NCBI GenBank assembly: GCA_944331945.1
Contig: CALVJC010000068.1
Coordinates: forward strand, 1 to 37,238
Length of the DNA: 37,238 nt
From: an uncultured Bacilli bacterium
GTDB lineage: Bacteria; Bacillota_I; Bacilli_A; RF39; UBA660
Reading direction: 5' to 3'
Each line of letters begins with the position of its first letter. The first letter of the stretch is position 1. Shown piece after piece: positions 6,183 through 33,600 of the stretch. A model generated the notes under the pieces. The model was given only the letters and a program-made list of their open reading frames with translations, did not search any database and was not told where the DNA came from. The translations under genes were made by a program, and so were the position numbers.

Positions 6183-7901
6183 ATGAAAGGACAGACTTTG
6201 TTTCTTATTACAGCGATAGTTGTTGTTTTTATTTTAATTCTTGTTGTGATCACTGTTTTGAAAAAGCGTCGTAAAAACTTTTATATACAAATTTGTAACG
6301 ATTTGGAAAGAGAAAAAAACTTGATTGGAAGTACCCCTGTTCTTTTAGAACTTTCCAAACTAGAACCCATTATTAAGAATGAAAAAATGGAAGAAAAGTA
6401 TCAAAAATGGCAAGATAAGTTTGAGGAAATTAAAACAAAAGAAATTCCCAAAATTGATGATATGTTGATTGAACTTGATACTTTAATTGATAAAAAAGAA
6501 TATAAAACTGCTAAATTTCGAATTGCAAAATGTGAGATGGAAGTTTATAAAGTAAGAGAACAAGCGAATGATTTGTTAGATCAAATTAAAGAAATTACTT
6601 TAAGTGAAGAAAAATATCGTAGTATTATTACGAAGTTAAAAACACAATATCGTAAATTAAATCAAAATTATCAAGAACATAAAAACTTATATGAATCGAT
6701 GGCTGAAGCGGTGGAATTACAACTAGAGAATATTGAAAAAAGATTCCTTGATTTTGAAAAGGCCATGGATCAAAATGAATATAATGAAGTGGTTCATATT
6801 GTGAAAGCGCTTGATACCATGATTGATCATATGAGTATTGTGATTGAAGAAGTTCCTGATTTGCTTTTAATGTGTAAACAATTAATTCCTCAACGTTTAA
6901 AAGAGATTGAAGAAACAAAGAATACGATGACAGAACAAGGTTATCCTTTAGAATATATGAATCTTGATTATAACTTAGAAGAAGCGAAAAAAAATGTAGA
7001 GACGATTCTTGATCGAATTAAAGTTTTAAATCTTGAAGATTGTATGTTTGAACTTAAGACTATTTTAGATTATTTAGATAGTATTTTTGTTGATTTTGAG
7101 AAAGAAAGATTATCTCGTAAAGTTTATGAAGAGACTTCGGTTGATTTTGCAAAGAAATTAAAGAAGACGAGTAAACTTGTAAAAGATATCTATGATCAAT
7201 TGGATGATATTAAAAATATGTATGATTTAAATGCAGAGGATGTTAAGATTATCGATGAAGTAAATAAAGATTTAGTGGGAATTCAAGATGATTATAAAAA
7301 GATGGATGATCAAGTGAAGAATCAGGCGACTCCTTATTCTTTGGTTCATAAAGAGGTAGATGCTTTATCGATTCGTTTAAAGCAAGTCGAAGCGACGCTT
7401 GATGTGGCTTTAAAATCTCTTGGTAATATGTATGAAGATGAACAAAGAGCGAGAGAACAGTTAACGGAAATTGATAATATCTTAAAAGAATGTAAAGAAC
7501 GAATGCGAGAATATAAATTACCGATTATCAGTGATCATTATTTTGTAGAACTTTCTGAAGCGAATGAAGCGATTCAAGAAGTGATTCGGGAATTATCACG
7601 GAAACCGATTGTAATTAAAACTTTAAATACAAGGGTAGATACCGCAAGAGATTTGGTTTTAAAATTATACCATACTACCCTTAGTATGATTAAAGAAGCA
7701 AAATTAAGTGAAATTGCGATTGTTTATGGAAATCGTTATCGAGGATTACATGAAGATATTGCAAGAGGATTAGAGCGTGCCAGTCATATGTTTTTTAAAG
7801 GAGATTATGCCACCTCCTTACAAGTATGCGTTGAAACCTTAAAATTAGTTGATGAAAATATAGAAAGAAAGATTTTAGCTTATGAAACAGAAATTAAATA
7901 G
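6183..7901 (+). CDS. ezrA: Septation ring formation regulator EzrA
   Basis: Single N-terminal TM helix, then ~540 aa of coiled coil. The C-terminal patch IVYGNRYRGLHEDIARGLERASHMFFKGDY matches B. subtilis EzrA (IIQFGNRYRSQNHILSEQLKEAERRFYAFDY). Synteny with rpsD/tyrS as in Bacillus. ATG at 6183 follows AGAGGTGA; the listed 6159 start lacks an SD. Confidence 0.85.
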   Translation: MKGQTLFLITAIVVVFILILVVITVLKKRRKNFYIQICNDLEREKNLIGSTPVLLELSKLEPIIKNEKMEEKYQKWQDKFEEIKTKEIPKIDDMLIELDTLIDKKEYKTAKFRIAKCEMEVYKVREQANDLLDQIKEITLSEEKYRSIITKLKTQYRKLNQNYQEHKNLYESMAEAVELQLENIEKRFLDFEKAMDQNEYNEVVHIVKALDTMIDHMSIVIEEVPDLLLMCKQLIPQRLKEIEETKNTMTEQGYPLEYMNLDYNLEEAKKNVETILDRIKVLNLEDCMFELKTILDYLDSIFVDFEKERLSRKVYEETSVDFAKKLKKTSKLVKDIYDQLDDIKNMYDLNAEDVKIIDEVNKDLVGIQDDYKKMDDQVKNQATPYSLVHKEVDALSIRLKQVEATLDVALKSLGNMYEDEQRAREQLTEIDNILKECKERMREYKLPIISDHYFVELSEANEAIQEVIRELSRKPIVIKTLNTRVDTARDLVLKLYHTTLSMIKEAKLSEIAIVYGNRYRGLHEDIARGLERASHMFFKGDYATSLQVCVETLKLVDENIERKILAYETEIK

Positions 7902-11273: not shown

Positions 11274-13328
11274 TCATCGTTTCTCTTTTATAATATTTTT
11301 ACTGCAGAAGTAGGTGATCAAGAAGTATCCTCCATAAATAAAGATTAAGAAGATTGCTGTCATGGTGACAGAAGCCATAAGTTGTTCTTTTCCAAAAGTT
11401 TCTAGGACTTTTTGACAGAACATGATACCAAAGATGGAATGAACGATAGCAAGGGAAAGGGGAAGTAAGAAGAAGATGGCGATTTGTTTAAAGAGGGCTC
11501 CATTGATTTGTTTTTCATCGGCTCCAATTTTGCGAAGGATAGAAAAACGTTCGACATTATCGGTGCTTTCCGATAATTCTTTTAAAGCGAGTATGGCAGC
11601 GGATGATATTAGGAAGATAATTCCTATATATAGTCCAATAAAGGTAACGACAGCTCCTAAACCAACACTTGCTTCATAAATAGCTAGTTTTGAATTGGCA
11701 CTTAACAAGATATTGGTATTTCCTTCTTGGGTTTGAAGAAGACTTTCTATTTTCTCTTTTTCTTCTTGTGTATTGGCCTTATAGTTTGCTAGTAGAATTT
11801 CACTTTCTATCATGGAATCGTTTACCGCGTCATCATTTACAATAATAATACCTGTATTAATATGACTATTGGACATATCCACGAATCCTTCTTCACAGTG
11901 ATCATATTTGGGATAATAGGTTTTTCCGTTTAGGGTAATGGGATTATTTTGCTCTAAAGCACGGTTTCTTACTTCTACCATACTATCAAAGTCAGCGACA
12001 ACCATGTATTCACCTTCATTCAAATCATAAGTCTTATTTCCATAGAGTCTAGCTACTTTATTATAATCACTTTCACTCATGATGATTTCTCTTGAAGTAT
12101 AGTCTAAAGCGGTATAGGTATCTTTGACTTCTTCATAAATATTACCTAGTGATTTACTTATAGTTACTTCGTCATCTGTGTAATAATAAACAAGTGTTTC
12201 ATCTTTTAAATACTTTTCAGGGTCAAAGTTAATTTTCTTTAAGCTTTCTTCAATGCTCTGATAAGAGTCTTGTCGTAGTTCCTCGCTAAAACCGTAGTCA
12301 TCTCTTTCTTGTTCGGTTAAATTCCTCAATTTGGTAAACTCGATATCGACTTTGGCTAGTTCGGTTAAATTGGCTGACATGGCATTTTTCATGGATAAGC
12401 AACTAGAAAAAACACAAATGGTGACGAAGAGCATTAAGCAGATCATGCCCATGGAAACGACAGTCGTATTTACTTTGCTACTAATTTGGCGAAAGGTAAA
12501 GCAGTTTAATCCTTTGTAATAAACTTTTTTTAAGGAATGGAATACTTTTAATAATAGTCCTGAGATCGAGAAGAAAAATAAGAAGGTGGCTAGGATTCCA
12601 ATTAAAATAATTTGATAAATTTCAGCGGTGCTTTGAATGGTATCATAACCAAAAGATACTTTATAGTAGGCATAGATTAAAAGGACTAGCGATAGGATAA
12701 AGATAATAATACAAAGAATTGGATTTTTCATCTTTACTTTTTCAGTCTTTTTATTGGCATTAATGAGATTAATGAGTTTACAGCGACTTACTTGAACGGT
12801 GTTAAAAATCATAACTAGTAAATAGATGATACCAAAGTAGAAGCCAGTTTTTATTAAAGCTGATTGAGAGAAGACAAAGGTGAATTCACTCATGTTGGCT
12901 TCAAAGAGGTTGGCTACTAAAATACTCATAAATTGAGAGATTAAAATACCAGCTCCTATACCAACGATAAAAGATATGATTCCGATAAAGAGTGTTTCTA
13001 GAAATAAGATCATTGAGATTTTTCTTTTACTCATACCGAGGGTTAGATAGATGCCGAATTCTTTCTTCCTTCGTTTCATGAGAAAACGACTGGCATAGAT
13101 GATTAAGAAGCCTAGGATAAAAGAAACCATAATACTAACACCAGAGAGCATACTATTTAAAAGATCAATTAAATCTCTTGTTCCTTGGCTTACTTCTAAC
13201 ATTACTGTTTGACTATCAATGGCATTAAATACATAGAAGATGGCCACACCTAGAATGAGTGTAAAAAAGTAGATGGCATAGTCTTTTACACTCTTTTTTA
13301 AGTTCTTTAAGGATAGTTTAAAGAGCAT
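11274..13328 (-). CDS. BceB-type ABC transporter permease (FtsX-like domains, 10 TM, large extracellular domain)
   Basis: 684 aa. Four TM helices plus a second FtsX block, with a ~230-aa soluble domain between TM7 and TM8. Overlaps the upstream ATPase gene by 11 nt. Sits in the Bce-type context. Confidence 0.85.
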   Translation of the reverse strand: MLFKLSLKNLKKSVKDYAIYFFTLILGVAIFYVFNAIDSQTVMLEVSQGTRDLIDLLNSMLSGVSIMVSFILGFLIIYASRFLMKRRKKEFGIYLTLGMSKRKISMILFLETLFIGIISFIVGIGAGILISQFMSILVANLFEANMSEFTFVFSQSALIKTGFYFGIIYLLVMIFNTVQVSRCKLINLINANKKTEKVKMKNPILCIIIFILSLVLLIYAYYKVSFGYDTIQSTAEIYQIILIGILATFLFFFSISGLLLKVFHSLKKVYYKGLNCFTFRQISSKVNTTVVSMGMICLMLFVTICVFSSCLSMKNAMSANLTELAKVDIEFTKLRNLTEQERDDYGFSEELRQDSYQSIEESLKKINFDPEKYLKDETLVYYYTDDEVTISKSLGNIYEEVKDTYTALDYTSREIIMSESDYNKVARLYGNKTYDLNEGEYMVVADFDSMVEVRNRALEQNNPITLNGKTYYPKYDHCEEGFVDMSNSHINTGIIIVNDDAVNDSMIESEILLANYKANTQEEKEKIESLLQTQEGNTNILLSANSKLAIYEASVGLGAVVTFIGLYIGIIFLISSAAILALKELSESTDNVERFSILRKIGADEKQINGALFKQIAIFFLLPLSLAIVHSIFGIMFCQKVLETFGKEQLMASVTMTAIFLIFIYGGYFLITYFCSKNIIKEKR

Positions 13329-18186: not shown

Positions 18187-18493
18187 AGATGTATGGATAG
18201 TGTGAAAAATGAAAACTCAAAAAGAAGTAAAAGAAGAAAACTTTAAAATAAGTAAATTAATTAATTAATGAATTATTAAAAAAGATTAAAGGACAAAAAA
18301 GGTAATGATTTTATAGAGTAATTCATTTCTTTTTTATATTATTATAAATTACCAAAATCATTGAAATTAGATAGGTTTTATTGTTTTATCTAATTTTGTT
18401 AAGTTTTAGCATAATAAGAATGAGAAATTTGTTATAAAAATATTGAAGAAAGGGAAGTAGTAATATTATATATGTATAAGGAGAAGTTTGAAT

Positions 18494-19585
18494 ATGTCAC
18501 ATTATAATGCTTATGATAGTTTTAAAACCAAAAAAAGTATAGAAAAAAAACAGCGAGCTAAAGCAAAAGCATTGGGGGAAAAAAGTGAATTAGTAGATGA
18601 TTTTGTTATTAATACTTGTGAAGAATATGGTGTTGCTATAGAAGTTAGATATGATGATGCATATATATTGTACAAAGGAGAAGTAGTGATAGCAAAACTA
18701 AGAAGAGATATTAATTTGGTTTGTAATCAAGTTGTTTTTCCAGGAGATAAAGTTGATGTCGAAAAATCAAATGACACATATATTATTAATCACTTATTAA
18801 AAAGGACTTCAATATTATCAAGAATAAAAAAGGATAGTACCAGATTAAATGATGTAGGGTTAACGAAAAAGATTGCTTCCAATATTGATTTAGCTGTTAT
18901 CGTAGTAGCTGCACAAGAGCCCCCTTTGCATCCGAAATTTATAGATAGATATTTAATGATTCTTCAAAATAGTAATATTCCTGCTGTAATTTGTTTAAAC
19001 AAATGTGATTTGAAAACAGACGAAGATGAAAAAATTTTAGATACATATAGAAATTTGGGAATAGATGTAGTTGAAACTTCCACATATGGTAATATTGGCA
19101 TTGATAATCTAAAAAGCAGATTAATTAATAAGCAAGCAATATTTGTTGGAAATAGTGGTGTTGGCAAATCTTCTCTTACGAATGCTATAATGGGTGATAA
19201 TGAAATAAAAACAAGTCATGTAAGTGATAAAAGTAAACGTGGGAGACATACAACAACTACTTCAAAGTACTATGTATGGGAAGAAAATTCTTCTATTATA
19301 GATACACCAGGTATAAGAAGTTTAGATGTTTCGTCATTTAATCCAATTGAGATTCAAGACTATTTTCCTGAGTTTGAAGGTTGGAGAGATAAATGTAAAT
19401 ATAGTGATTGTATTCATTTTAATGAGCCTTATGATTCTTGTATAGTTAAACAAGGAGTTGCTAATGGATTAATAAATGCAGAACGTTATGAAAGCTATTT
19501 AAGAATAATGAGTGATTTGCTTGGTGAAAAAGATTATGAAGTGATATTGGAAGAAGTAGCTTCAAGAAAACTTCAAAAAAACTAA
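18494..19585 (+). CDS. rsgA: RsgA/YjeQ-family circularly permuted ribosome-biogenesis GTPase (island copy)
   Basis: OB-fold region (VVFPGDKVDV...IINHLLKRTSILSR), G4 LNKCDL, G1 GNSGVGKSSLTNAI, GRHTTT, G3 DTPGIRS, and a C-terminal zinc knuckle CKYSDCIHFNEPYDSC. ATG at 18494 is 10 nt after AAGGAG; the listed TTG at 18488 is too close to the SD. Confidence 0.8.
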   Translation: MSHYNAYDSFKTKKSIEKKQRAKAKALGEKSELVDDFVINTCEEYGVAIEVRYDDAYILYKGEVVIAKLRRDINLVCNQVVFPGDKVDVEKSNDTYIINHLLKRTSILSRIKKDSTRLNDVGLTKKIASNIDLAVIVVAAQEPPLHPKFIDRYLMILQNSNIPAVICLNKCDLKTDEDEKILDTYRNLGIDVVETSTYGNIGIDNLKSRLINKQAIFVGNSGVGKSSLTNAIMGDNEIKTSHVSDKSKRGRHTTTTSKYYVWEENSSIIDTPGIRSLDVSSFNPIEIQDYFPEFEGWRDKCKYSDCIHFNEPYDSCIVKQGVANGLINAERYESYLRIMSDLLGEKDYEVILEEVASRKLQKN

Positions 19586-20744: not shown

Positions 20745-20773
20745 TTTACTTCTCATAAATACCTGTGTATAAT
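20745..20773 (+). promoter_or_regulatory. Putative sigma-A promoter of the HipA-like operon
   Basis: TTTACT (20745-20750), 17 nt, TATAAT (20768-20773). This gives a leader of about 80 nt. Confidence 0.5.
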
Positions 20774-20860
20774 ATATATAAGAATGATTCGTACGGACGT
20801 TCGGTTGAATAATGTAAAAAAATATTATAAAATATATTTAAAATAGGGGGTGGGTCGGTT

Positions 20861-21718
20861 ATGGATAAATATAAAATTTATGAAGAAGGCACTGACTTTA
20901 TTTTCGAGCAAATACAAGATGCTAATACAAAGGGGACAAGAGTAAAAAAGATAGCAATAGATACTTCTTCATATGAAACAGCATATTTTAAATATGAGAT
21001 GTACAATTGTAGCGAATCTTGTTCTGAAAAAATGAGCTATGAAATAGCAAAAGTCTTGGATTATCCATGTGCACATATAGAACTAGCAAGAGATAGAAGA
21101 GGCAATATTGGTATTTTAAATTATTTATTTATCGATAAAGAAAAAGAAGAACATCATGATGCTATTGACTTTATAAATAAAGATGAAAATGAAGCAAAAG
21201 AATATTATACAATTGAAAATATAAAAAAGTGCTTAGATAATATCGATGAAAATTTGTTCGCTGATTTTCTGAAAATAATGGTGTTTGATGCATTAGTTGG
21301 TGAAACAGATCGACATGCTGAAAATTGGGGTATAACAAAAGATAATATCGGTTACAAGTTATCTCCTTTATATGATAATGGAACCAATTTATTAAGAAAT
21401 TTTAAAAATGAAGCATATGCTGAGAAATATTATAGTGGAGTAAGACCATTTGATATATACATAAAAAGGGCAGAATCCCTAATATTTAAAGGTGATCACT
21501 CTAAACAATATAAACTACACGAATTAATACAATACTTATATACAAAATATCCTGAACAAATTGCCCATGAAATTAAAAACCTAGAAAAGCTAACAGCTGA
21601 TAAAATTAGTGAAATTGTAAACAAAATACCAGACGAATTATTGACGGAACAGCATAAAAAGTTTATAATACTCTACCTAAATGAGCGCAAGAAACTACTG
21701 GAAGATATAATAAAATAA
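20861..21718 (+). CDS. HipA-family Ser/Thr kinase, N-terminally short (HipT-like core)
   Basis: Catalytic loop FDALVGETDRHAENWGI (HipA D-x-H-x-x-N), LSPLYDNGT (Mg-binding Asp) and a KGTRVKK loop region. At 285 aa it is much shorter than E. coli HipA (440 aa). SD GGGGGTG. Confidence 0.8.
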   Translation: MDKYKIYEEGTDFIFEQIQDANTKGTRVKKIAIDTSSYETAYFKYEMYNCSESCSEKMSYEIAKVLDYPCAHIELARDRRGNIGILNYLFIDKEKEEHHDAIDFINKDENEAKEYYTIENIKKCLDNIDENLFADFLKIMVFDALVGETDRHAENWGITKDNIGYKLSPLYDNGTNLLRNFKNEAYAEKYYSGVRPFDIYIKRAESLIFKGDHSKQYKLHELIQYLYTKYPEQIAHEIKNLEKLTADKISEIVNKIPDELLTEQHKKFIILYLNERKKLLEDIIK

Positions 21719-21732
21719 AAGAGGGTGATAAT

Positions 21733-22416
21733 ATGTTAGAAAAACTATTGATGATTTGGAAAGCACCAGTCAGTAGAAGAAGATTTATCATTGGGGAATT
21801 ATCAAAAAGTGAAGAAGAGTACTGCTTTAAATATATTAATCCAGAATTAGAAGCAGCTAAAGAAAATGGTTTTAGCTATTTTCCAGGATTTAATGATTTA
21901 AGTAAAACTTATACATCAAATACGTTGTTTAAAAATATTGAAACAAGATTGCCAAATCCATCTAGACCAGATTATTTAGAAATTTTAAATTTATATGATT
22001 TGGAAACAGATTCGAATCAGATGGAGATCTTAAGAGCGACAAAAGGGAGGCTTTTAACAGATAATTTTGAATTTGTACCACCATTTGATAGAAATAAGAT
22101 TGAATTCGATATTGCAGGAACAAGTCATCACTTACTAGATAAAGAAGTGAGAAAAGTATTAAGGGTAAATGATAATTTAGAATTAGAACAAGAACCGGAC
22201 AATAAAGAAGATAGATATGCAATCAAAGTTCTATATGAGTTGGAAGATAAAAAAGTTCTTTTAGGGTATGTTCCCAGATATTATAGCAAAGATCTAACAG
22301 GTTTGTTAGAAAAAGGAACAAAATACTCTGCGAAAATTGAAAGTTTAAAACTAGATAGTGAAATTAGCGATGAAGACGTAACAGCAAGTGTCAAACTTAT
22401 TTTTGAAAACAAATAA
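21733..22416 (+). CDS. Fusion of a HipS-like (HipA N-terminal subdomain) region with a HIRAN domain
   Basis: N-terminus: FIIGELSK..YCFKY..LFKNIETRLPN..EILRATKGRLLTDNFEF parallels HipA VGELTK..HTFKY..FFDNLLPD..LLSEIGRDSVGAV. C-terminus: IAGTSHH..LELEQEPDNKEDRYAIKV..LLGYVPRYYSKDL fits the HIRAN pattern. Starts 14 nt after the kinase gene, with SD AGAGGGTGA. Confidence 0.7.
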   Translation: MLEKLLMIWKAPVSRRRFIIGELSKSEEEYCFKYINPELEAAKENGFSYFPGFNDLSKTYTSNTLFKNIETRLPNPSRPDYLEILNLYDLETDSNQMEILRATKGRLLTDNFEFVPPFDRNKIEFDIAGTSHHLLDKEVRKVLRVNDNLELEQEPDNKEDRYAIKVLYELEDKKVLLGYVPRYYSKDLTGLLEKGTKYSAKIESLKLDSEISDEDVTASVKLIFENK

Positions 22417-22668
22417 TAACAGAGAAACTCTCTCATTCTGATAGTGTAAATAAAGTGTGTAAGTAATGGAAAGACTACACCTTTTTTATATACTCTTTTA
22501 ATAAAAAATCAAATTTCTTCTTCTTTTATTGATTTTATTATATCAGTCAGTAGTTGCTAGGTCAAAAAGAGACATAATCAACTTAAAGTTTACCTAGATC
22601 AATCGAAGAAGTTATGTTATTATAAGTTTGTGAAAAATAAGCAAAGAAAATTTAATGGGGAGAGGAAA

Positions 22669-22713: not shown

Positions 22714-22787
22714 TGGCAGGGGATGAGAGAATCGAACTCCCAACAAAAGTTTTGGAGACTCCTATTATACCATTTAACTAATCCCCT
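22714..22787 (-). tRNA. trnW: tRNA-Trp (anticodon CCA), CCA end encoded
   Basis: Reverse complement reads AGGGGAT-TA-GTTA-AATGGTA-TAAT-A-GGAGT-CTCCAAA-ACTTT-TGTT-GGGAG-TTCGATT-CTCTC-ATCCCCT-G-CCA. This is a full cloverleaf with a 7-bp acceptor stem, a TTCGATT T-loop, anticodon loop CT-CCA-AA and discriminator G. Confidence 0.9.
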
Positions 22788-22867: not shown

Positions 22868-23299
22868 ATGACGAATTTATTATCTTATACAAGTAAAGAA
22901 TTGGATTTGTTAGCTAGACTTATGCGTGCTGAGGCAGTTGGTGAAGGGGAATATGGTATGTTGATGGTAGGAAATGTAGGAGTGAATCGGGTTTTGACGA
23001 ATTGTTATACTTTTCGTAATATTAAAACAATTACGCAGATGGTTTATCAAAATCCTGGTGGGTTTGCAGGAATTAATAGTTCGCTTTTTGCCTCTGGTTC
23101 CACAATCAAAGAACGTGAGTTGGCGCAGAGAGTTTTAAGTGGGGAATATTATTATCCTGCTACGAATGCTCTTTGGTTTTATGCTCCTAGTGGTAGTGCT
23201 TCTTGTATTGCTACTTGGTATGATCAAGCTTTGGCTGGGCGCTTTAAAAATCATTGCTTTTATGAGCCAGATCCTGGAATTTGTCCCCCTCTTCATTAG
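22868..23299 (+). CDS. cwlJ: Spore cortex-lytic / cell wall hydrolase CwlJ (SleB/CwlJ family)
   Basis: DLLARLMRAEAVGEGEYGMLMVGNVGVNRV ... WFYAP ... RFKNHCFYEP closely parallels B. subtilis CwlJ (DLMARLLRAEAEGEGKQGMLLVGNVGINRL ... RFKSHCFYQP). 143 aa, SD AGGTGA. Confidence 0.8.
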   Translation: MTNLLSYTSKELDLLARLMRAEAVGEGEYGMLMVGNVGVNRVLTNCYTFRNIKTITQMVYQNPGGFAGINSSLFASGSTIKERELAQRVLSGEYYYPATNALWFYAPSGSASCIATWYDQALAGRFKNHCFYEPDPGICPPLH

Positions 23300-23336: not shown

Positions 23337-24341
23337 ATGGAATTTATCGAAACAATTAAGGATAGAGTACGTCATTTAAAAAGAAAAAGAATTGTATTAC
23401 CAGAAACGGATGATATTCGGGTTTTAAAGGCGGCTAGTATCGTTTTAAAAGAAGATTTTGCAGATATTATTTTAATTGGGAAAAAGGAAGAAATTTTGTC
23501 TATTTCTAAACAAGAGAACCTTGATTTGGAGTCTTGTTCTTTTGTGGATCCCGAGACTTTTTTCGATAGAGAACTTTTGATTGATCATTATTATGAACTA
23601 CGAAAGCATAAAAATATTACTCATGAGGAAGCAGAAAAAGCTTTACTTGATTATCCTACCTTTGGTGCTATGCTTGTTCGTCTTGGTTATGCGGATGGAA
23701 TGGTTAGTGGGGCTGTTCATTCGAGTGCGGATACCTTGCGCGTTGCTTTACAGATTATTAAGACTTCAAAGATTCAAACGGCTTCTTCTTTCTTTTTGAT
23801 GGTTACACCGCGGGTAGAATATGGAAGTGATGGGGTTTTTGTTTATTCTGATTGTGGAATGAATCAGAATCCTACTAGTGAACAACTTGTGGATATTGCT
23901 TATAGTAGTGCGGAAACATTCCGCTTGTTAGTGGAAAAAGAACCTAAGATCGCGTTTTTATCGCATTCTACTTATGGTTCTTCGAAATGCTCTGATCAAG
24001 AGAAAGTGGTACGGGCGGTTGCTTTGGCGAAAGAGAAATATCCTGATCTTTGTCTTGATGGAGAATTACAATTTGATGCGGCCATCATGGAAGAAGTTAG
24101 AGAGAAGAAAGCGCCAGGTAGTCCATTAAAGGGGAGTGCTAATGTTTTGATTTTCCCTGATTTGGATGCAGGAAATATTGCTTATAAAATTACCGAACGG
24201 TTAGGTCTTGCGAAAGCCTATGGTCCTATTACACAAGGGTTAGCGAAGCCAATCAATGATTTATCAAGAGGATGTAACGAATTTGATATTGTGGGTGCCA
24301 TTGCTATTACGGCTTTACAAGCGGAAGAAGTAGATTCATGA
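23337..24341 (+). CDS. pta: Phosphate acetyltransferase
   Basis: 334 aa from the ATG behind AAGGAGAG. Short-form Pta pattern: RIVLPE.DD.RVLKAA, GYADGMVSGAVHSSADTLR, PDLDAGNIAYK, and DLSRGC near the C-terminus. The listed ORF start at 23139 is an in-frame read-through overlapping cwlJ. Confidence 0.9.
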   Translation: MEFIETIKDRVRHLKRKRIVLPETDDIRVLKAASIVLKEDFADIILIGKKEEILSISKQENLDLESCSFVDPETFFDRELLIDHYYELRKHKNITHEEAEKALLDYPTFGAMLVRLGYADGMVSGAVHSSADTLRVALQIIKTSKIQTASSFFLMVTPRVEYGSDGVFVYSDCGMNQNPTSEQLVDIAYSSAETFRLLVEKEPKIAFLSHSTYGSSKCSDQEKVVRAVALAKEKYPDLCLDGELQFDAAIMEEVREKKAPGSPLKGSANVLIFPDLDAGNIAYKITERLGLAKAYGPITQGLAKPINDLSRGCNEFDIVGAIAITALQAEEVDS

Positions 24342-25225
24342 TTTTAAATGTTAGTGGTCGTACGGATATTGTTGCTTTTTATAGCGAATGGTTTTTTCGA
24401 CGAATGGAGGAGGGGTATCTTGATGTGAGAAATCCCTTTTATCCAAAGCAAGTAAGTCGAATCTTTTTTTCTTGTGTGGATGCGATTGTTTTTTGTACGA
24501 AGAATCCAATCCCTTTGTTACCTTATCTTGATAAAATTACGATTCCTTATGTGTTACAAGTTACTTTAACGGGATACAAAAGAGATATTGAACCTTTTGT
24601 GCCAGATAAGAAAAAAGTAATAGAAGCGATTAAGAAGATCAGTGAGAAAATAGGGAAAGAGAATGTTTATCTTCGTTATGATCCTATTTTCTTAAATAAA
24701 AAGTATACCTTGTCTTATCATATTCGAGCATTCGAAAAGTTAGCATCTTTGCTTTCTTCTTCGGTGTCTTGTGTTATTATTTCTTTTTTAGATGATTATA
24801 AGAACGTACGAGAGCATCAAAGTGATTTGCAAGTAATTCCTTTTGCGGAAGAGGATTATAAGACGTTAGGTCTTTCTTTTTCATCGATTGCCAAGAAGTA
24901 TGGGATGACGATTCAAACTTGTGCGGAAGAGAAAAATTTAGCTTGCTATGGCTTTCAGATAGGAAGTTGTGTGGATGCTTTTTTGGCTTATCGTTTAACC
25001 GGGAAAACGAAGTGGAAAAAATGGAGTGCCAGAAAGAATTCTTTTTGTCATTGTGTTCAGATGACGGATGTAGGGGTTTATAATACTTGTAGACATTTTT
25101 GTCGTTATTGCTATGCTAATTATGATGAGAAAAAAGTACGAGAGAATCAAGAGAAACATATTCCTTCTTCTTCTTGTTTAATTGGTACGGTAGAGGAAGA
25201 AGATATTGTTAAAGTTTGGAAATAA
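24338..25225 (+). CDS. DUF1848-family protein (Cys-rich C-terminus)
   Basis: N-terminus ILNVSGRTDIVAFYSEWFFRRMEEGYLDVRNPFYPKQVSRI is typical of DUF1848. C-terminal cluster CHC...CRHFCRYCYA. ATGA overlap with the pta stop. Confidence 0.65.
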   Translation: MILNVSGRTDIVAFYSEWFFRRMEEGYLDVRNPFYPKQVSRIFFSCVDAIVFCTKNPIPLLPYLDKITIPYVLQVTLTGYKRDIEPFVPDKKKVIEAIKKISEKIGKENVYLRYDPIFLNKKYTLSYHIRAFEKLASLLSSSVSCVIISFLDDYKNVREHQSDLQVIPFAEEDYKTLGLSFSSIAKKYGMTIQTCAEEKNLACYGFQIGSCVDAFLAYRLTGKTKWKKWSARKNSFCHCVQMTDVGVYNTCRHFCRYCYANYDEKKVRENQEKHIPSSSCLIGTVEEEDIVKVWK

Positions 25226-26481: not shown

Positions 26482-27645
26482 ATCAGGATTTTCTTTCAGA
26501 GATTGGGTGAGTTTTTTCTTGTAAATTTCTACTCCATTTTGATTGTAGTATGGTACCTCTAAAAGGTATGATCCCATCATAGTAGAAAGGTAGAAAAAGA
26601 AGATTAGATAACCCATGTTCCATTCATTTTTTTCATCCATCGTGATTCGAATATTTGGAATATTATTTTCTAAATGTGAGTTACAAATACTTTCTTCTAG
26701 TTTTTCTTCTAAGAAGTTAAAATCTTTGTTTTTTTGGATCGCTCTAATGTGGGTTTCAAAGCAAAGGGATGGTCCTTCTTGTAAGTATTGTCCTAGGGAG
26801 TGAAGATCTCTACTATAAACAAGAGAGATAGGGAAGAGTCCTTTTCCTTCTTTTCCTTCCGATTCGGCCAAGAGTTGTTTGAGCCATTCGGTGAAGTAAG
26901 ATAGTTTTTCATCATAGATGGTGAAGGCTTCTAGACTTTTTCCTTCTTGATAAAATTTGTGGCGAAGAAAGGCGTAGGTATAAGCCTTTTCTTCGTCTTT
27001 TTTTGCTTGTTTGGCTCCTTCTAGTAGAGATTTTATATCAAGTCCTGCTACTTCAAGGGGAAGAAGTCCTACGGTTGATAAAACAGAGAAGCGACCCCCA
27101 ATATCTTCTTCAATGGTAAAGCGTTTGATTTGATATTGGTTTGAGAACTCATATAATTGTCCTTTTTGTTGATTAGTAGTAATTATGATTCTTTCGTTCC
27201 ATTTTTCCTGATATTTTTCTTTTAAAAGGGGAAGAAGTTCTTTTAAAGTGAGGATCGTTTCAAGGGTATTTCCAGACTTTGAAATGACATTTAGAATGAT
27301 TTCTTTTTCTTTTAAATAGTCTTTTAATTCCTCTAAGGAGTCTCTAGGAATGGTTGTTCCGGTAAAAATGATTTCTGGTGTTTCCTTTTGATAAGGATTT
27401 CGCATCGCTTCATAAAGAGCTTTGGCTCCAAGGAAGGAACCGCCAATTCCGATGACGAGGAAAATATCGCAGTTCTTTTTGATCTCTTGTGCTGTTGTTT
27501 CTATTTCAGTTAAGTTTTTTTCTTGGCGCTCTAAATCATACCATCCTTTCATGTTGTCTTCTTCTAAGAATGTTTTTTTGATTTTTTCTTTTTTCTTTTG
27601 CTCTTCGCTATTTAGACTATAGTGATGAAAGTCAAATGTTATCAT
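26461..27645 (-). CDS. pgi: Glucose-6-phosphate isomerase (short form)
   Basis: SIS/PGI motifs IGIGGSFLGAKALYEAM, ISKSGNTLET, GGRFSVLSTVGLLP and ESEGKEGKG. ATG overlaps the stop of the upstream giant gene (ATGA) and follows GGGAGGA. Confidence 0.85.
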   Translation of the reverse strand: MITFDFHHYSLNSEEQKKKEKIKKTFLEEDNMKGWYDLERQEKNLTEIETTAQEIKKNCDIFLVIGIGGSFLGAKALYEAMRNPYQKETPEIIFTGTTIPRDSLEELKDYLKEKEIILNVISKSGNTLETILTLKELLPLLKEKYQEKWNERIIITTNQQKGQLYEFSNQYQIKRFTIEEDIGGRFSVLSTVGLLPLEVAGLDIKSLLEGAKQAKKDEEKAYTYAFLRHKFYQEGKSLEAFTIYDEKLSYFTEWLKQLLAESEGKEGKGLFPISLVYSRDLHSLGQYLQEGPSLCFETHIRAIQKNKDFNFLEEKLEESICNSHLENNIPNIRITMDEKNEWNMGYLIFFFYLSTMMGSYLLEVPYYNQNGVEIYKKKLTQSLKENPDLEIHLI

Positions 27646-30600
27646 ATTTTTCCTCCCTTGATTTCAATCGAATGCGTTTTTTTATCATTACTTAACGGAA
27701 TGTCGTTCTTGATTTCTTGTTGGTCTAAAGTAATTTTGGTTGTTTTGCTTTGCTGAAAGGTAATTTCATAAGTTGTATCTTTATAATGATAGGTTAAGTG
27801 ATAGCTTTGGAATGGAATCTTATCTATGTCGAAATGGAGGGTTTTTCCATATTTGCGGAAGCCGAGAAGTTCTTCGATTCCTACTTTATAGAACCATGCG
27901 CTACTACCGGTATACCAAGTCCAACCACCTTTGGCATAGAAAATCTTATGGGTGTAGATGTCAGCAGGAATGACATAAGGTTCTACTTGATAGATTTGGC
28001 AGTCTTCTTTGTTCATGGTATGAGAGATTGGATTTAACATAGTGAAGACATTTAGGGCTTCTTCTTTTTGGCGAAGATGAGAAAGCGCCATAATATACCA
28101 AGCGACAGCATGCGTATATTGACCTCCATTTTCTCTTAGACCTTGAGCATAGTTTTGAATATAGCCAATATCGTGCCAATTTTGAGTAAATGGTGGGGTT
28201 AGAAGTTTTACTAAGCCATGTTTGGTATCAACTAATTTTTCTTCGACGGCTTCTAAGATTGTTGGTATTTGTTCTTCGGTAGCGATATCGGTTAAGATAG
28301 CAAAGCTTTGAGAAATCAGATCGATTTGGCATTCTTGACTATCCATGCCTCCTATTTTGGTACCATCATCGGCGATGGCTCTTAGATAATAGGTTTTGTC
28401 CCAACCATTTTTTAAGAGGGCTTCTTTTAGATCTTGTTGTTGTTTTTGATAAGTTTCTACTTCCTCTAGATTTGTTTTTTGACAAAGTTTGATGTAACGA
28501 GATAATACTTCATAAAGGAAGAATCCTAACCAAATACTGGTTCCTTTTCCTTTGATTCCGATATGGTTCATACCATCGTTCCAGTCTCCACCTCCCATGA
28601 GAGGGAGTCCGTTTTCGCCCATTTCCTTTTTAGTTTTTTGCATAATGATCTTTAAGTGTTCTTTTAAAGGCCATTTTTCTTCTGTATAGTAGTATTCCAT
28701 TCCGCGTTCTTCTTCGTGTTCTTCTAATAGTGGTCCGACGACAAAAGGAATTGGTTCTTCTAAAATACTGGTATCATTTGTTTTTTCTATATATTCATAA
28801 GTTGCATAGACTAACCATAAGTAGTCGTCTTTGAAGCGAGAACGAAGTCCAAAGCGACTTGTTTCATGCCACCAATGTAAGACATCTCCTTCTCTAAATT
28901 GATGCATAGCACAGTTGATAATTTGCTTTTTGGCATATTCTTGATGGGTGGTAGCAATGTTCATACAGTCTTGTAATTGATCGCGGAATCCAAAGGCTCC
29001 TCCGACTTGATAGAAACCAGAACGTGCTAGAATACGGCAGGCAAGTGATTGATATAAGTACCAACCATTCATCATATAATTGAAGCGATTGTCTTCTGTT
29101 TCTATGGTGATTTTACCTAATTCTTTTTCCCAATGTTCTTTGGTTTGCTTCTCTAATTTTATGGCTTCTTCTACTGTTGTGATTTCAAAAGGATCTTGAT
29201 TTTCTTTGCAACCAAGGAAGAATGCTATCGTTTTTTGTTCTTTGGCTTTTCCTTTGACTTTTATGGTAATTCCTTTGATGACTGGTTGATCGATAAAGGA
29301 GATAATTGGTTCGGTTGCTTTTAAATATACGATATTGTCTCGGAATTGTTTGGTATAACCATTTTGAATTAAGAGAGCATTTTGATTTTGGTCAAAAGTA
29401 GTGATTAAATGGCGGATGGTTGTATCTTCGCTTTCTCCTAGAACTGGATTCATAAAGTAGGTTAGGTTGAATTCTTGATCTTGTTCAAAGGTAATGGTTA
29501 AGAGATTTACTTTTACCTTTTTCTCTTTTGGAACAAAGATGGTGTTCTTGAAGAAATTTTCTTTGGTTTTGGTTTCGAAGATACTATAGCCAAATCCATG
29601 CGTACACTTGCTAAAATCAATTCGAATGTTATCTTGGAAGAATCCTTCCGATGGATCATCTAGCATGGTGTCATTGGTCCAGGTGGTGAGTTTGTATTCT
29701 TTGCTATTAAAGGCATAAGTGAAGCCATTGTTGGTGTTGGTAATGACGGTACCAAAGTTTTCACTAGCTAAGACATTGCTCCAAGGCATAGGGGTGTTCC
29801 GATTATAGATGACGTATTCTTTTCCATTGTTTTGAAAGCCGCCAAATCCATTGTCAAATTCTAGTTTTGGTTTTTCTATTGGTAGATATTCTAAAGATTT
29901 GCCTTCTTCTTTTTTCTTGGCTTTGTTTTGGACTTGTAAAGAGTCAATATAATCTTTTAGGGAGTGTGTTTTTTTGGTATCAAAGTATAGTCTTGCAATG
30001 CCACGAAGTAAGTTTCGTTCTTCTTCGGTGATTTCATTTGCTTCGATGACTTTGATCATTCCTTTATAAGAAGCGGGATCTTGATAAGAATAGATATAGA
30101 ATAATTCATTTTGAATGACTTCTTTGATCATGCTGGCATGTTCTTCGTCTTTACTGTTTAAAAGAATCATATCCACATAGATACCTCTATTTTTATAATA
30201 TTCGAACATTTTTAAGAGTTCTTTGGTCAAGCCAAGAGAGGTTAAATCGTCAATTTCTACTAAGATGATGGGAATATCTCCAGAAATACCAAAGCGCCAT
30301 AAGTTTTGTTGTGATAGGCGATTGTTTAATAAATAGTCTCTTCTTTCTTGAGATAGGTTGATTTTCGTCGTTTGATAGAGATAATTTAAGGCTTTGTTGT
30401 AACGATTGACATCTTCCGAATTGACGCCTAGTTGTTTGATCATTTTATCCGTGGTTAAGGTGACCATGCGGAAGGCATCTTGAATTTCTTCTTCGTTTTG
30501 ATAGTCTTTTAATATCTCTAAGATTTGTTGTTTACTAGTACCAAAACCATTTAAGATATAGACGGTTTTCTTTTCTCCTGCTAGTAAGGTGATTTTATTT

Positions 30601-33600
30601 CTGATGGAAGCGATCGGATCTAAGTTATCCCCCGTATAATTGGTAAGTGATTTTAAAAGACCACTTGGATTACTATAACTATCATTTCGAGTTAAGAAGT
30701 TTGAACGTTCGGTTTCATAAGTATTTGGTTCTTTAAATTCTTTGCTCCAAAGTTTATGAACAAAGTAGTAGTTATTTTTGTTTCGTTCTTTTCGTTCGAA
30801 AATGAGCGCTTTTCCTTCTTCGCTATATTCTGAGGTTAAGAACATACTATTGAATACTCGATGACTGATATCATTGCGGTTGTTACAAACGATTGGTTCG
30901 GTATAAGTGGTAAGTTCTAGGGTATGAGGTGTTTCACCTAAGTTTTTAAAGGTGATTTTGCGAATTTCGGCATTGTGTTTTTGGGTTACGATAATTTCGG
31001 TGTTGGTTACAATCTCCTGATCAAGTCGTTGATATTTTAAGCGGTCAAGGGCAAAAGTTACTTCGTAACGATCGGGTGTTTTGTTTACTGGGGCATAGGT
31101 GTTTGACCAAATGTTATCGTTTTCTTTCATATAGAGATAGCAGCCATAATCTTGTTCTGATATTTTACGATAACGATTTAATTGAATGTCTTTATAACGA
31201 CTAAATCCATTTCCTTTTTCATTCATTAAAATCATATATCTCGCATTGGATAGAGCGGATACTTCAGGATATTCTTGAATTTCCCGGTAGATTCTAACGT
31301 CGTTTTCAAGGGGTTCTTTCCGATATTCTTGGGCTTTATAATGTCTTATTTTCATGTCAATCATAGGCTTGATTTGTAATTTTTCTTTATTTAAGATGTC
31401 AAAAGCTTCGATTTGAATATCATGCTGAAAATATTTTTGAATGGTTTGATTAGCTAGATAGTTGGCAAGACTTGTTAGGATCATACCTTGATGATGGGCG
31501 AAATAGGCATAAACGATTTCTTGATCATCTATGTCATAGGATTCATAGCATCCAAGTTCTCCAACCATATTGATTTTTTTCCATTTTTGATAGTTCTTAT
31601 AAACTTCTTCTGGATTTTTCGTAAGGGCAATAAAAGAAGCATAAGGACTAATGACTTTTCGATCGGTATCAATGCTTTGAAATTTTAAATAAGGAGTTCC
31701 AAAGGCTTTATATTTGTAATTTTTGGCATCATCTAGAACATTGTATGCTGCTTCACTGATTCCCCAAGGAAGATTTGGAGCGATTTCTTTTTGATATTCT
31801 TTTTGACAATACATGGCAAAGTAATAGCTTTCATCAATTAAGGTATTCGGGTAATCATTCATGAATAAAAGAGGCATATAGTATTCGAAAGAAGTTCCAG
31901 ACCATGAAAGAAGTCCTTTATATTGATGAAATTTGGTTAAGGACTTATCAAGAGCGAACCAGTGTTTATAGGAAACATCTCCTTTGGCAATGGCAATATA
32001 GCTCGTTAGTCTTGATTCACTTGCGAATTTGTCATAATGATACGGTGATTTTTTCTCTTCTAGACTGTCATAACCTACGGTAAAAGTATTTGTTTGCTTA
32101 CTGAATAATTTACTAAAGTCTGCTTTTTTGATTAGTATTTCACAACGCTTTTCAAAGGCTTCTTCTTGTTCTTCTTGATAAAGTTCTTTTAAAACGATAA
32201 GGCTAGCGATGAAGTTTCCACTGTCGATGGTCGATATATAATAAGGAAACATTGGTTCTTTGGTTTTGATATTGTACCAGTTATATAGATGACCATTCCA
32301 TTTTTTTAGTTCTTCTACGGTTGTTAAAATATTATCAAGAAGGGTAAAGGCTCTTTTTCTTGAGATGATTTGTAATTTATAAGCTGATATAATGGCAAGA
32401 ATTGAAAAACTAATATCAGTGGCAGAAGTTTTGATATCGTAAACTTCTTCTCTATTTTTTTGATAATTGTCTGGTATTAAGTAGTTATTTTCTTTGGTTA
32501 GGGCTTGATCAAAGTATTTCCAAGTTTTTTTGGCTAATTCAAATAAGTCTTCTTGATTTTTCTTTGAGAGAGAGATGGTTCTCTCTGTTACTGGTTGTCC
32601 CATGAGATAGAAATAAAGAGGACTTGCTAAGAAGACAATGGAAATCATCAAAACAGCAAAGATATTGACGGGATTTAACCAAAGGACTAAGAGAAGCAGA
32701 AGAATACAAAACCAATAATTACTTTGGAATTTGATCAAGTAGGTATCTAGGGTATTATTGGTGTTATTGGCCGCTTCTTCTGAGGTAACCCAACTAAGAA
32801 GTTTTTTGTGGCTAAAGTACATGCGCCAGATGGATCTTAGAAAAGCATCGAGATATAATTTGGCATGGTAAGGAAGAGAAGAAAAGTCAGCGACAATTTT
32901 TAAGACAATAGATTGTAGTCCGACAATGGTGTTCTGGTATTGTTTGGTTTTGGTGGACCGTTTGTTTTGCGATTTTATTTTTTCAAAGATGAAAAAGAGA
33001 ATTGGTATTAATAAAATAAAGATAACAAAGAGGATCCAAAAATGAGGGGCAGTAGGACTAATGGTGTAAGCTAAAACGATAATAAGAAGTAAGAAGAAAG
33101 GTAAAAGTCCTCGTCTGATATTATCGATAAATTTAAAGCGATGAATGCTATTTAAAGGATTTTTTTTGAAAGCCCAAGATAGTATTTGCATGTCACCTCT
33201 TGCCCAACGATGTTGTCTTTTGGAATCAACTAAGAAGTCACTTGGAAAATCATCGTAAACATCAACATCGGAAACATAACCACACCGAGTATAACTTCCT
33301 TCTAATAAGTCATGGCTTAAGATTCGGTTTTTCGGGAAATGATTGTTTAAAATGACTTCGTTAAATACGGCTAAGTCATAGATGCCTTTGCCATAGAAAT
33401 TACTTTCTTGAAAAACGTCTTGATAAAGATCGGGTACGACACTGGAATAAACATCATATCCTCCTAAACCGGCGAAGGTTTGAGAGTAGGTTGATTGATT
33501 TTCTAAAGAAAGATCAAAGGTTACTTTTGGTTGCATCATACCATAACCTTGAATGACTTTGGTTCTTTCCTTATTTAGTACTGGTTGATTCATCGGATGA

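Follow-up and report, generated by a model that had tools for sequence, protein, structure and literature searches.

Layout of the hipIN locus

We analyzed a two-gene module on contig CALVJC010000068.1 of an uncultured Bacilli bacterium (assembly GCA_944331945.1), carried on a stretch of 37,238 nucleotides (nt) that is referred to as a whole as the window. The module consists of two open reading frames, ORF1 and ORF2, which lie on the same strand with 14 nt between them, exactly where a sequence-only reading of this DNA had located them, and each is preceded by a G-rich Shine–Dalgarno sequence (AGGGGGTG at 20845-20852 and GAGGGTG at 21721-21727, respectively). Judged from its profile matches, the locus is a genuine hipIN/PDC-M03 module. 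Modules of the hipIN type were described by Gerdes, Baerentsen and Brodersen in 2021 as a short HipI kinase (Hip Tree clade XI) together with HipN and no HipB (PMC8262856); HipI kinases are 279-321 amino acids (aa) long, have a glycine-rich loop near the N-terminus and occur in Firmicutes, Actinobacteria and other groups (PMC8262856). In PADLOC, the hipIN pair is PDC-M03, one of 145 candidate systems. The features of the locus are as follows.

20861 to 21718, forward strand: hipI (ORF1), putative toxin kinase of 285 aa
21733 to 22416, forward strand: hipN (ORF2), putative two-domain antitoxin/sensor of 227 aa
21733 to 22089, forward strand: N-terminal domain of HipN (aa 1-119), HipS-like, Couple_hipA superfamily
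22099 to 22353, forward strand: HIRAN domain of HipN, Pfam span aa 123-207, with the fold reaching about aa 224
20745 to 20773, forward strand: promoter candidate P1, TTTACT-17-TATAAT, 10/12 consensus match
20805 to 20833, forward strand: promoter candidate P2, TTGAAT-17-TAAAAT, 9/12 match, 28 nt 5' of the hipI start codon
21641 to 21669, forward strand: internal promoter-like element, TTGACG-17-TATAAT, 11/12 match, 64 nt before the hipN ATG
20764 to 22439, forward strand: hipIN cassette as a transferable unit of 1.68 kb, from the -10 box to 23 nt beyond the hipN stop codon

The sequence-only reading had named P1 as the promoter of the operon. This element is present with its 10/12 match, but the AT-rich region shows no excess of promoter-like matches (20 versus 16.2 +/- 3.8 in shuffled sequences), and P2 fits the positions in relatives better. 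The -10 box of P1 is kept in a 92%-identical copy (locus L003), in which the -35 region differs; homology to a 78%-identical copy (L010) starts at 20805, the 5' edge of P2, and many relatives have an extended -10 element (TGnTATAAT) at a distance from the start codon equivalent to that of P2. On these positional grounds, P2 corresponds better than P1 to the promoters of relatives. Upstream of hipI we found only low-complexity AT-rich repeats and no operator palindrome conserved among relatives. A scan of the forward strand after hipN identified no intrinsic terminator, and the folding of this region is no better than that of shuffled sequences (z -0.93). The earlier statement that no helix-turn-helix (HTH) or HipB gene exists at the locus agrees with our Pfam scan of the neighboring genes, which returned no HTH match.

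The internal element at 21641-21669 is better conserved than its setting inside hipI would require. Of 34 non-redundant relatives, 23 have an element with at least 11/12 matches in this position, among them relatives whose kinases are only 42-58% identical. The Leu codon within the -35 box is TTG in 23 of 27 loci compared with a background of 17% TTG among Leu codons of the same genes (binomial p 1.8e-14), and the Ile codon within the -10 box is ATA in 26 of 33 loci compared with a background of 50% (p 6e-4); both p-values are optimistic because the loci are related, although synonymous sites are expected to be saturated at such divergence. Since both codons are biased relative to background, coding constraint does not explain the element, which is probably a separate promoter of hipN. 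In some toxin-first toxin-antitoxin (TA) operons a separate promoter keeps the downstream antitoxin in excess, and the hipN promoter would keep a downstream-encoded inhibitor in excess in the same manner. As far as we found, this internal promoter and the pattern of kinase deletions presented below are apparently absent from Gerdes et al. (2021).

The HipI kinase and the two domains of HipN

HipA_C and HIRAN, the Pfam families that the sequence-only reading had proposed to search for in the two proteins, both scored above their gathering thresholds. ORF1 matched HipA_C with an E-value of 2.7e-11 (44 bits, cut-off 30.5) from aa 30 onward, and the PADLOC profile hidden Markov model (HMM) PDC-M03A with 1.5e-66 (aa 16-284 on positions 10-276 of 280). 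With 285 aa, it is 155 aa shorter than the 440-aa HipA of Escherichia coli K-12, in line with the estimate of about 150 aa made earlier. The glycine-rich loop N22-T-K-G-T-R-V-K29 (20924-20947) lies near the N-terminus and is followed by the catalytic loop G147-E-T-D-R-H-A-E-N-W-G157 (21299-21331) and the Mg-binding residue D172 (21374-21376). In an alignment with a 48-homologue profile, D150, H152, N155 and D172 correspond to D309, H311, N314 and D332 of HipA, and none of the 48 homologues departs from G25, R27, K29, K44, D150, R151, H152, N155 or D172. Because its catalytic residues align with those of HipA and are invariant, HipI looks catalytically competent, and its HipA kinase core is retained as had been proposed. 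Position 26 in the glycine-rich loop is Thr or Ser in 46 of the 48 homologues and is a candidate autophosphorylation site.

The designation of this kinase as "HipT-like" is imprecise. When the 48-sequence profile was compared with PDB sequences, the closest solved relative of HipI was CtkA of Helicobacter pylori (3akj; E-value 1.6e-14, aa 116-282), with an alignment that takes in the catalytic loop as well as the helical part at the C-terminus and leaves the N-terminal lobe unaligned. HipT of Legionella pneumophila (HipT(Lp)) and HipA matched at 2.9e-4 and 7e-4, respectively, and both aligned around the catalytic loop only. By profile comparison HipI is thus nearer to CtkA than to HipT, and the kinase-first gene order is also opposite to that of hipBST. 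Its putative place in a HipI subclade of clade XI is indicated indirectly, by the PDC-M03A match and the cognate HipN partner.

ORF2 matched PADLOC PDC-M03B with 7.7e-65 over aa 3-224. The AlphaFold model of full-length HipN is confident, with a predicted local distance difference test (pLDDT) score of 90.4 and a predicted template modeling (pTM) score of 0.85, which suggests that its two domains are held in a fixed mutual arrangement. A fold search with the whole protein was swamped by HIRAN matches, and its HipA match was poor (4pu4_B, root-mean-square deviation (rmsd) 13 Å); a domain-only model was therefore needed. The model of aa 1-119 alone (pLDDT 92) matched HipS of the Legionella HipT-HipS complex (7vkb_B) with template modeling (TM) scores of 0.63 (query) and 0.73 (target), an rmsd of 3.4 Å, a probability of 1.00 and an E-value of 0.013, and all other PDB fold matches found with Foldseek had TM scores below 0.3.

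Sequence comparisons of this domain gave a divided picture. An N-domain profile of 28 sequences, shallow with an effective sequence number (Neff) of ~2, gave no HipS or HipA at an E-value of 10 or below when searched against all PDB sequences; aligned directly to E. coli HipA with hhalign, it reached a probability of 1.2% over 22 columns, placed on the equivalent N-terminal hairpin (HipA 12-34). Among these close homologues, in the same shallow alignment, Pfam Couple_hipA was matched in one of 28, with an E-value of 0.14. Searched exhaustively as an HMM, the N-domain profile retrieved 1,217 representatives (50% identity) at an E-value of 1e-3 or below, and of 75 diverse ones among them 29 matched Couple_hipA (best E-value 1.8e-8), 28 HIRAN and three HipA_C. 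The fold match to 7vkb_B together with these intermediate sequences places the N-terminal domain of HipN as a divergent branch within the HipA-N/HipS superfamily. The earlier claim that ORF2 aa 1-115 resemble the missing HipA N-subdomain is accordingly borne out by fold and intermediate sequences and was not demonstrable by direct sequence comparison. This divergent position agrees with the published HipS tree, in which HipL and HipN form a separate branch (PMC8262856).

HipS-like domains are also found at the N-terminus of proteins of other sizes, including P0242 (425 aa), P0374 (734 aa), P0307 (331 aa), P0385 (351 aa) and P0361 (311 aa). In the 75-protein sample, single members carry HD, DUF4062, HDOD, HEPN_Apea or DSPc in place of HIRAN, and these partners may represent alternative sensor or effector fusions.

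The C-terminal domain was identified as HIRAN with little ambiguity. The Pfam match has an E-value of 2.6e-12 (46.9 bits, cut-off 24.7; aa 123-207), and Foldseek matched HipN to the HIRAN domain of HLTF (4xzg, 4s0n and 5bnh; E-values 3e-5 to 1e-4) and to lp_0118 (3k2y), which the HipN profile also matched by sequence (4.2e-5). The sequence-only reading had given a span of about aa 125-225; the Pfam match ends at aa 207 and the fold continues to about aa 224. Among 48 HipN homologues, N157, D160, G178-Y-V-P-R182 and Y184 do not vary, and 44 of them have H132. The pocket of HLTF for the DNA 3' end comprises R71, Y72, N91, Y93, D94 and K113. In an HMM alignment, HipN D160 aligns with HLTF D94, which we take to be the residue that reads the 3'-OH. 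In the same alignment, positions 131 and 159 of HipN map to HLTF R71 and Y93, the latter presumably the stacking tyrosine. This copy has S131 (codon 22123-22125) where 24 of 48 homologues have Arg, and E159 (codon 22207-22209) where 26 of 48 have Tyr. DNA-end binding by this HipN is plausible from its conserved residues, not assured. Its closest relatives also have S131 and E159 and may constitute a sub-lineage with altered DNA-end binding.

Gene pairing, kinase loss and genomic context

Relatives were collected from 75 metagenome loci, three viral-contig loci and contigs obtained by exact protein look-up; HipN homologues formed 586 clusters at 90% identity, and co-occurrence was counted in 49 non-redundant HipN-anchored locus families, counts that rest on metagenome contigs. 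In 29 of the 49 families, an intact kinase gene of the same orientation directly precedes hipN at a distance of ~14-74 nt, and all three kinase-anchored families have a HIRAN gene directly downstream; the gene pair is thus conserved among relatives. Six families have a partial kinase upstream of hipN (some cut by contig ends), seven an orphan hipN of full length that lacks a kinase although 1 kb or more of sequence is available upstream, and five a fragmentary hipN; two were too short to judge. Kinase-only loci were not seen in the small kinase-anchored sample of three families.

Comparisons of otherwise collinear loci that are 93-99% identical revealed recurrent loss of the kinase alone. The kinase has been cleanly excised with hipN kept in L073 relative to L074 (~846 bp missing) and in L043 relative to L039 (~852 bp missing); L027 retains only the last 53 kinase codons together with hipN, and in L028, which is collinear with L022 (95.7%), the kinase match is limited to codons 1-159. 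These kinase-only deletions, along with the lack of kinase-only loci, are what would be expected of a kinase that does harm in the absence of HipN and a HipN that does none by itself. Such asymmetric decay fits a toxin/antitoxin relationship and provides indirect support for it. Kinase-lacking or disrupted loci comprise L073, L043, L027, L028, L017-L020, L048, L049, L064 and L083, and some orphan hipN genes are located inside O-antigen/polysaccharide clusters, followed by an AAA_14/DUF4143 ATPase gene. Single-chain fusions of 506-530 aa also exist, in which the HipS-like domain occupies about aa 290-410 and some of which match HipA_C.

The region 20764-22439 is the only part shared between the window and loci L003-L005, with 92.2% DNA identity and unrelated flanks; those of L003-L005 carry a type IV restriction-like gene (SRA-HNH) and a NUDIX gene. 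Judged by this comparison, hipIN is a small horizontally mobile cassette. The genes next to the copy in the window are as follows.

18488 to 19585, forward strand: RsgA-type GTPase with an N-terminal extension of ~100 aa
19671 to 20456, reverse strand: SKI-like P-loop protein (SKI/AAA-like, 261 aa) with weak PADLOC cross-matches to IetA and mad8
22714 to 22787, reverse strand: tRNA-Trp (CCA), outside the module, with its 3' end toward the cassette
22868 to 23299, forward strand: cell-wall hydrolase

In locus L010, hipIN is likewise located 3' of tRNA-Trp (11649-11722), with an AEP/DEAD helicase gene between, and L003 contains 47 nt from the 3' half of a tRNA-Trp gene (6524-6570) ~460 bp upstream of the cassette. 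These positions make tRNA-Trp a likely insertion hotspot for hipIN. The adjacency was also considered as a functional tie to the TrpS-targeting relative HipT, a reading that we rejected as an insertion hotspot explains it better. No tRNA-Trp-derived or flanking direct repeat longer than 14 nt delimits an island in the window. The GC content around this copy is 0.24-0.28, and the RsgA-type GTPase and the divergent SKI-like gene sit in a low-GC stretch upstream of the cassette.

Otherwise, the window is ordinary Bacillota-type chromosome, with a T-box and tyrosyl-tRNA synthetase, ribosomal protein S4, EzrA, Pta, an ABC transporter accompanied by a two-component system, and a large GH94 glucan enzyme. 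A defence island around this copy, the enrichment that the sequence-only reading had proposed to look for, was rejected, with no convincing PADLOC defence genes beside the pair and only weak P-loop cross-matches and one DUF1848 match among its neighbors. The DUF1848 gene (24338-25225) overlaps the end of pta by 4 nt and matches PADLOC RTasDUF1848 (DRT-associated) with 5e-37; no reverse transcriptase was found among the window ORFs scanned with Pfam. The T-box leader (111 bits; 694-877) is followed, in 893-2783, by a HAD-family hydrolase gene and then tyrosyl-tRNA synthetase; tyrS T-box operons do not usually begin with such a hydrolase. A 2,528-aa protein encoded on the reverse strand at 27642-35228 combines glycosyltransferase, DUF3131, glucoamylase-like and GH94 regions and resembles cyclic beta-1,2-glucan synthase, an uncommon protein in low-GC Bacilli-type genomes.

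Relatives of hipIN occur in diverse settings. Some adjoin type I restriction-modification (R-M) and GmrSD genes or Gp49/HTH and HicB-like TA genes, one is directly downstream of recG, and others lie inside capsule/polysaccharide loci or on cyanobacterial and mycobacterial plasmids. In the Clostridioides difficile phage phiCDKH02, hipIN is part of the lysogeny module between the integrase and ImmA/repressor genes; in a 14-kb Vibrio Vinavirales element it is beside the integrase; and in the P2-like Escherichia phage 899 (L109, PV533660.1, 1959-4163) a 519-aa fusion lies between the replication (gpA) and portal genes. In temperate phages, the pair or its fused form is found where accessory genes are carried. 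A census of 139 immediate neighbors in 38 loci, made without a control set and claiming no enrichment, was heterogeneous; its defence and mobile-element families include type I methyltransferase, AbiEi, SspH-like, PDC-S07/S16, FtsK/SpoIIIE and ResIII/DEAD.

The kinase-HipS-HIRAN gene of phage 899 directly follows a gene annotated "3'-5' exoribonuclease", an adjacency that recalls the DEDD diDNases beside HipA-HIRAN pairs in Actinobacteria (PMC11706625). In the same 2025 Nucleic Acids Research paper, a third of diDNase genes adjoin HipA and HIRAN pairs and the link was left open (PMC11706625). The window contains no such diDNase (DEDD) neighbor of the kind found near actinobacterial HipA-HIRAN clusters.

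Interpretation and relation to known systems

The best explanation of this locus is that hipIN encodes a kinase toxin that is restrained by HipN and released by DNA ends or by the loss of HipN, for which we estimate a probability of about 0.6. In this model, of which we infer the mechanistic steps from the domain assignments, HipI would be an active short HipA-family Ser/Thr kinase without HipA N-subdomain-1, and HipN would supply that subdomain in trans as its HipS-like domain, with HIRAN added at the C-terminus. By analogy with HipS and HipT, HipN aa 1-119 would act on the glycine-rich loop of HipI. Binding of HipS(Lp) converts the P-loop of HipT from a loop to a helix and abolishes ATP binding (PMC9325769), as described with the Legionella HipT-HipS complex 7VKB in which all 102 HipS residues were built (PMC9325769), and E. 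coli HipS wedges Trp65 beside the glycine-rich loop (PMC10627512). Transcription from the conserved promoter inside hipI would add to that of hipN and bring the inhibitor into excess. Engagement of free 3'-OH DNA ends by HIRAN, whether on intermediates of phage replication or packaging or on damaged DNA, would then release HipI, as might titration or degradation of HipN; this relief is proposed from the known function of the domain. Released HipI may phosphorylate an essential protein of the host, which from the precedent of HipA and HipT probably acts in translation; the resulting growth arrest would abort infection or stabilize the carrying element. The copy in this genome sits inserted next to tRNA-Trp.

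Gating of a kinase toxin by DNA ends is the best model at hand, and it is not new. The architecture and the model of DNA-end-gated abortive infection were both published in 2021, with HIRAN proposed to recognize the DNA ends of invading phages or replication intermediates, leading to kinase activation and abortive infection (PMC8262856). The sequence-only reading was right about a kinase paired with a HipS-like::HIRAN fusion in the absence of HipB, and the bioinformatic survey of HipA homologues with HIRAN partners that it mentioned is that of Gerdes et al. (PMC8262856).

Several observations weigh against the model. Direct similarity of the HipN N-domain to HipA or HipS is undetectable and the Foldseek E-value is only 0.013, while docking of HipN on HipI and its inhibitory effect are extrapolated from HipS. 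S131 and E159 stand where about half of the relatives have Arg and Tyr, so that DNA-end binding may be weakened in this copy. The equivalent subdomain belongs to the active HipA enzyme, and HipN could therefore be an activator instead of an inhibitor. CtkA, the closest solved relative of HipI, is reported to be a host-directed kinase rather than a TA toxin. This copy is situated on an ordinary chromosome without flanking defence genes, and among the heterogeneous neighbors in 38 loci surface-polysaccharide genes are at least as common as defence or mobile-element genes. In keeping with the sequence-only reading, no experimental work on any hipIN module was found in the full-text literature, in which most subscription journals are not covered.

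We put forward more tentatively the specific proposal that HipIN is a working anti-phage abortive-infection system, in which HIRAN, as a prokaryotic innate-immune sensor, detects free 3'-OH DNA ends and allosterically releases the kinase from its detached N-subdomain, with the separately promoted hipN setting the firing threshold. HipA-family kinases have otherwise been validated in phage defence, which we count for the model of a restrained kinase toxin: HipAD/DS-6, a HipA-family kinase with a DUF3037/DUF1829 partner, is a validated anti-phage system that requires kinase activity (PMC13092281).

Plain addiction, with an unstable HipN antitoxin and a stable HipI toxin stabilizing the carrier element and HIRAN serving as a DNA-binding, autoregulatory substitute for HipB, would suit the presence of the pair on temperate phages beside integrases, on plasmids and beside TA genes, the differing flanks of the cassette, and the lack of a HipB for autoregulation. 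We nevertheless consider it unlikely, as characterized HIRAN domains bind DNA 3' ends and not specific operators (PMC8262856), no conserved palindromic operator is found upstream across relatives, and many copies, including this one, are chromosomal without adjacent mobility genes. Addiction and defence are not mutually exclusive. The least probable alternative in our view is a phage-independent switch for DNA damage or replication stress, in which HIRAN would sense stalled or broken forks of the host and the kinase would pause growth for persistence or tolerance. Eukaryotic HIRAN domains act at stalled forks and HipA-family kinases cause persistence (PMC8262856), and the relative downstream of recG would fit such a role; the patchy mobile distribution and the adjacency to phage genes, prophage hotspots and R-M genes better suit conflict systems, however, and the kinase is often deleted.

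HipN might instead be an obligate activating subunit that completes the kinase fold, with HIRAN bringing the holo-kinase to DNA ends for phosphorylation of DNA-associated host or phage proteins. Natural HipL-like fusions (506-530 aa) bear on this question, because a HipS-like domain present in the same chain cannot be a constitutive inhibitor; they favor a regulated, ligand-gated switch and also keep an activating role alive. Such a role would further agree with the place of the equivalent subdomain in active HipA and with the rigid two-domain arrangement predicted for HipN (pTM 0.85). Both stand-alone HipS proteins studied experimentally are inhibitors, however (PMC9325769, PMC10627512); deletions that remove the kinase and keep hipN, with no kinase-only loci, point to a kinase that is harmful without HipN; and a conserved separate hipN promoter fits an antidote kept in excess. 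We regard an activating HipN as improbable, and the restrained kinase toxin remains our preferred reading.

Should HipIN prove to be the anti-phage system tentatively proposed above, it would be the first case in which a HIRAN-based immune sensor is demonstrated and a HipS-type antitoxin is shown to be gated by a ligand. If the preferred reading holds, hipIN would tie a DNA-end sensor conserved to human HLTF and Rad5 to a translation-arresting kinase, and would offer a simple, testable case of a TA pair switched on by an infection cue and not by antitoxin decay. The family is large, with its 586 HipN clusters and 1,217 HipS-like-domain representatives, and ranges over gut Bacilli, phages of Clostridioides, elements in Vibrio, P2-like coliphages, and plasmids of Actinobacteria and Cyanobacteria. 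Conceptually, the locus adds nothing beyond the 2021 description, and it is a clean, compact 1.68-kb cassette suited to testing. Added here are the fold-level confirmation of the HipS-like domain, the affinity of the kinase to CtkA, a hipN promoter inside hipI that is conserved at synonymous sites, kinase-only deletions that recur, and carriage by phages and as a cassette, among which the internal hipN promoter, the deletions and phage carriage are concrete handles for experiments.

Among known systems, HipAD/DS-6 resembles hipIN in combining a HipA-family kinase with a non-HipB partner, which in that system is unrelated to HipN and has neither a HipS-like nor a HIRAN domain. HipBST of E. coli O127, Legionella and Haemophilus is likewise a split HipA with a kinase core lacking N-subdomain-1, and its separately encoded HipS, whose fold (7VKB_B) is shared by the HipN N-domain, neutralizes the kinase at the glycine-rich loop. 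HipBST is tricistronic with the HTH protein HipB, whereas no HTH gene occurs in or beside the operon studied here; its HipS is a stand-alone protein of ~100 aa encoded upstream of the kinase, whereas HipN's HipS-like domain is fused to HIRAN and encoded downstream. The kinase-first order of hipIN reverses that of hipBST and permutes the arrangement in HipA. By profile similarity HipI falls outside the HipT clade (HipT(Lp) 2.9e-4 versus CtkA 1.6e-14), and the TrpS target of HipT cannot be assumed for it.

CtkA (JHP0940 of H. pylori, PDB 3AKJ), the closest solved structure to HipI by sequence profile, is 325 aa long and has been investigated for its kinase action on host cells, and it is not known to us to have a HipS-HIRAN partner. 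The HIRAN domains of HLTF/Rad5 and lp_0118 (4XZF, 4S0N, 5BNH, 3K2Y) have the same fold as that of HipN (Foldseek E-value 3e-5), and the Asn and Asp of N-x-x-D-x-x-A-I-K and the G-Y/H-V/L...R/K motif are invariant. In HLTF and Rad5 the domain sits with an SNF2 helicase and RING, whereas in HipN it is fused to a kinase-regulatory domain, and Y93 of HLTF is replaced by E159 in this copy.

The nearest counterparts are HipL, PDC-M03 and hipIN itself. HipL is the fused single-chain kinase-HipS-like-HIRAN form (PMC8262856), with the same three domains in an N-to-C order identical to the hipI-hipN gene order; HipL is one chain, whereas two polypeptides are encoded here and hipN has its own candidate promoter. 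For PDC-M03, the adjacent genes match both HMMs over their full length (1.5e-66 and 7.7e-65) at a distance of 14 nt. Compared with hipIN as described by Gerdes et al., the short core kinase, the downstream gene for a HipS-like domain and HIRAN, and the absence of HipB are all shared without architectural difference, and this copy is set apart by its origin in an uncultured Bacilli-type genome and by a HIRAN domain with S131 and E159.

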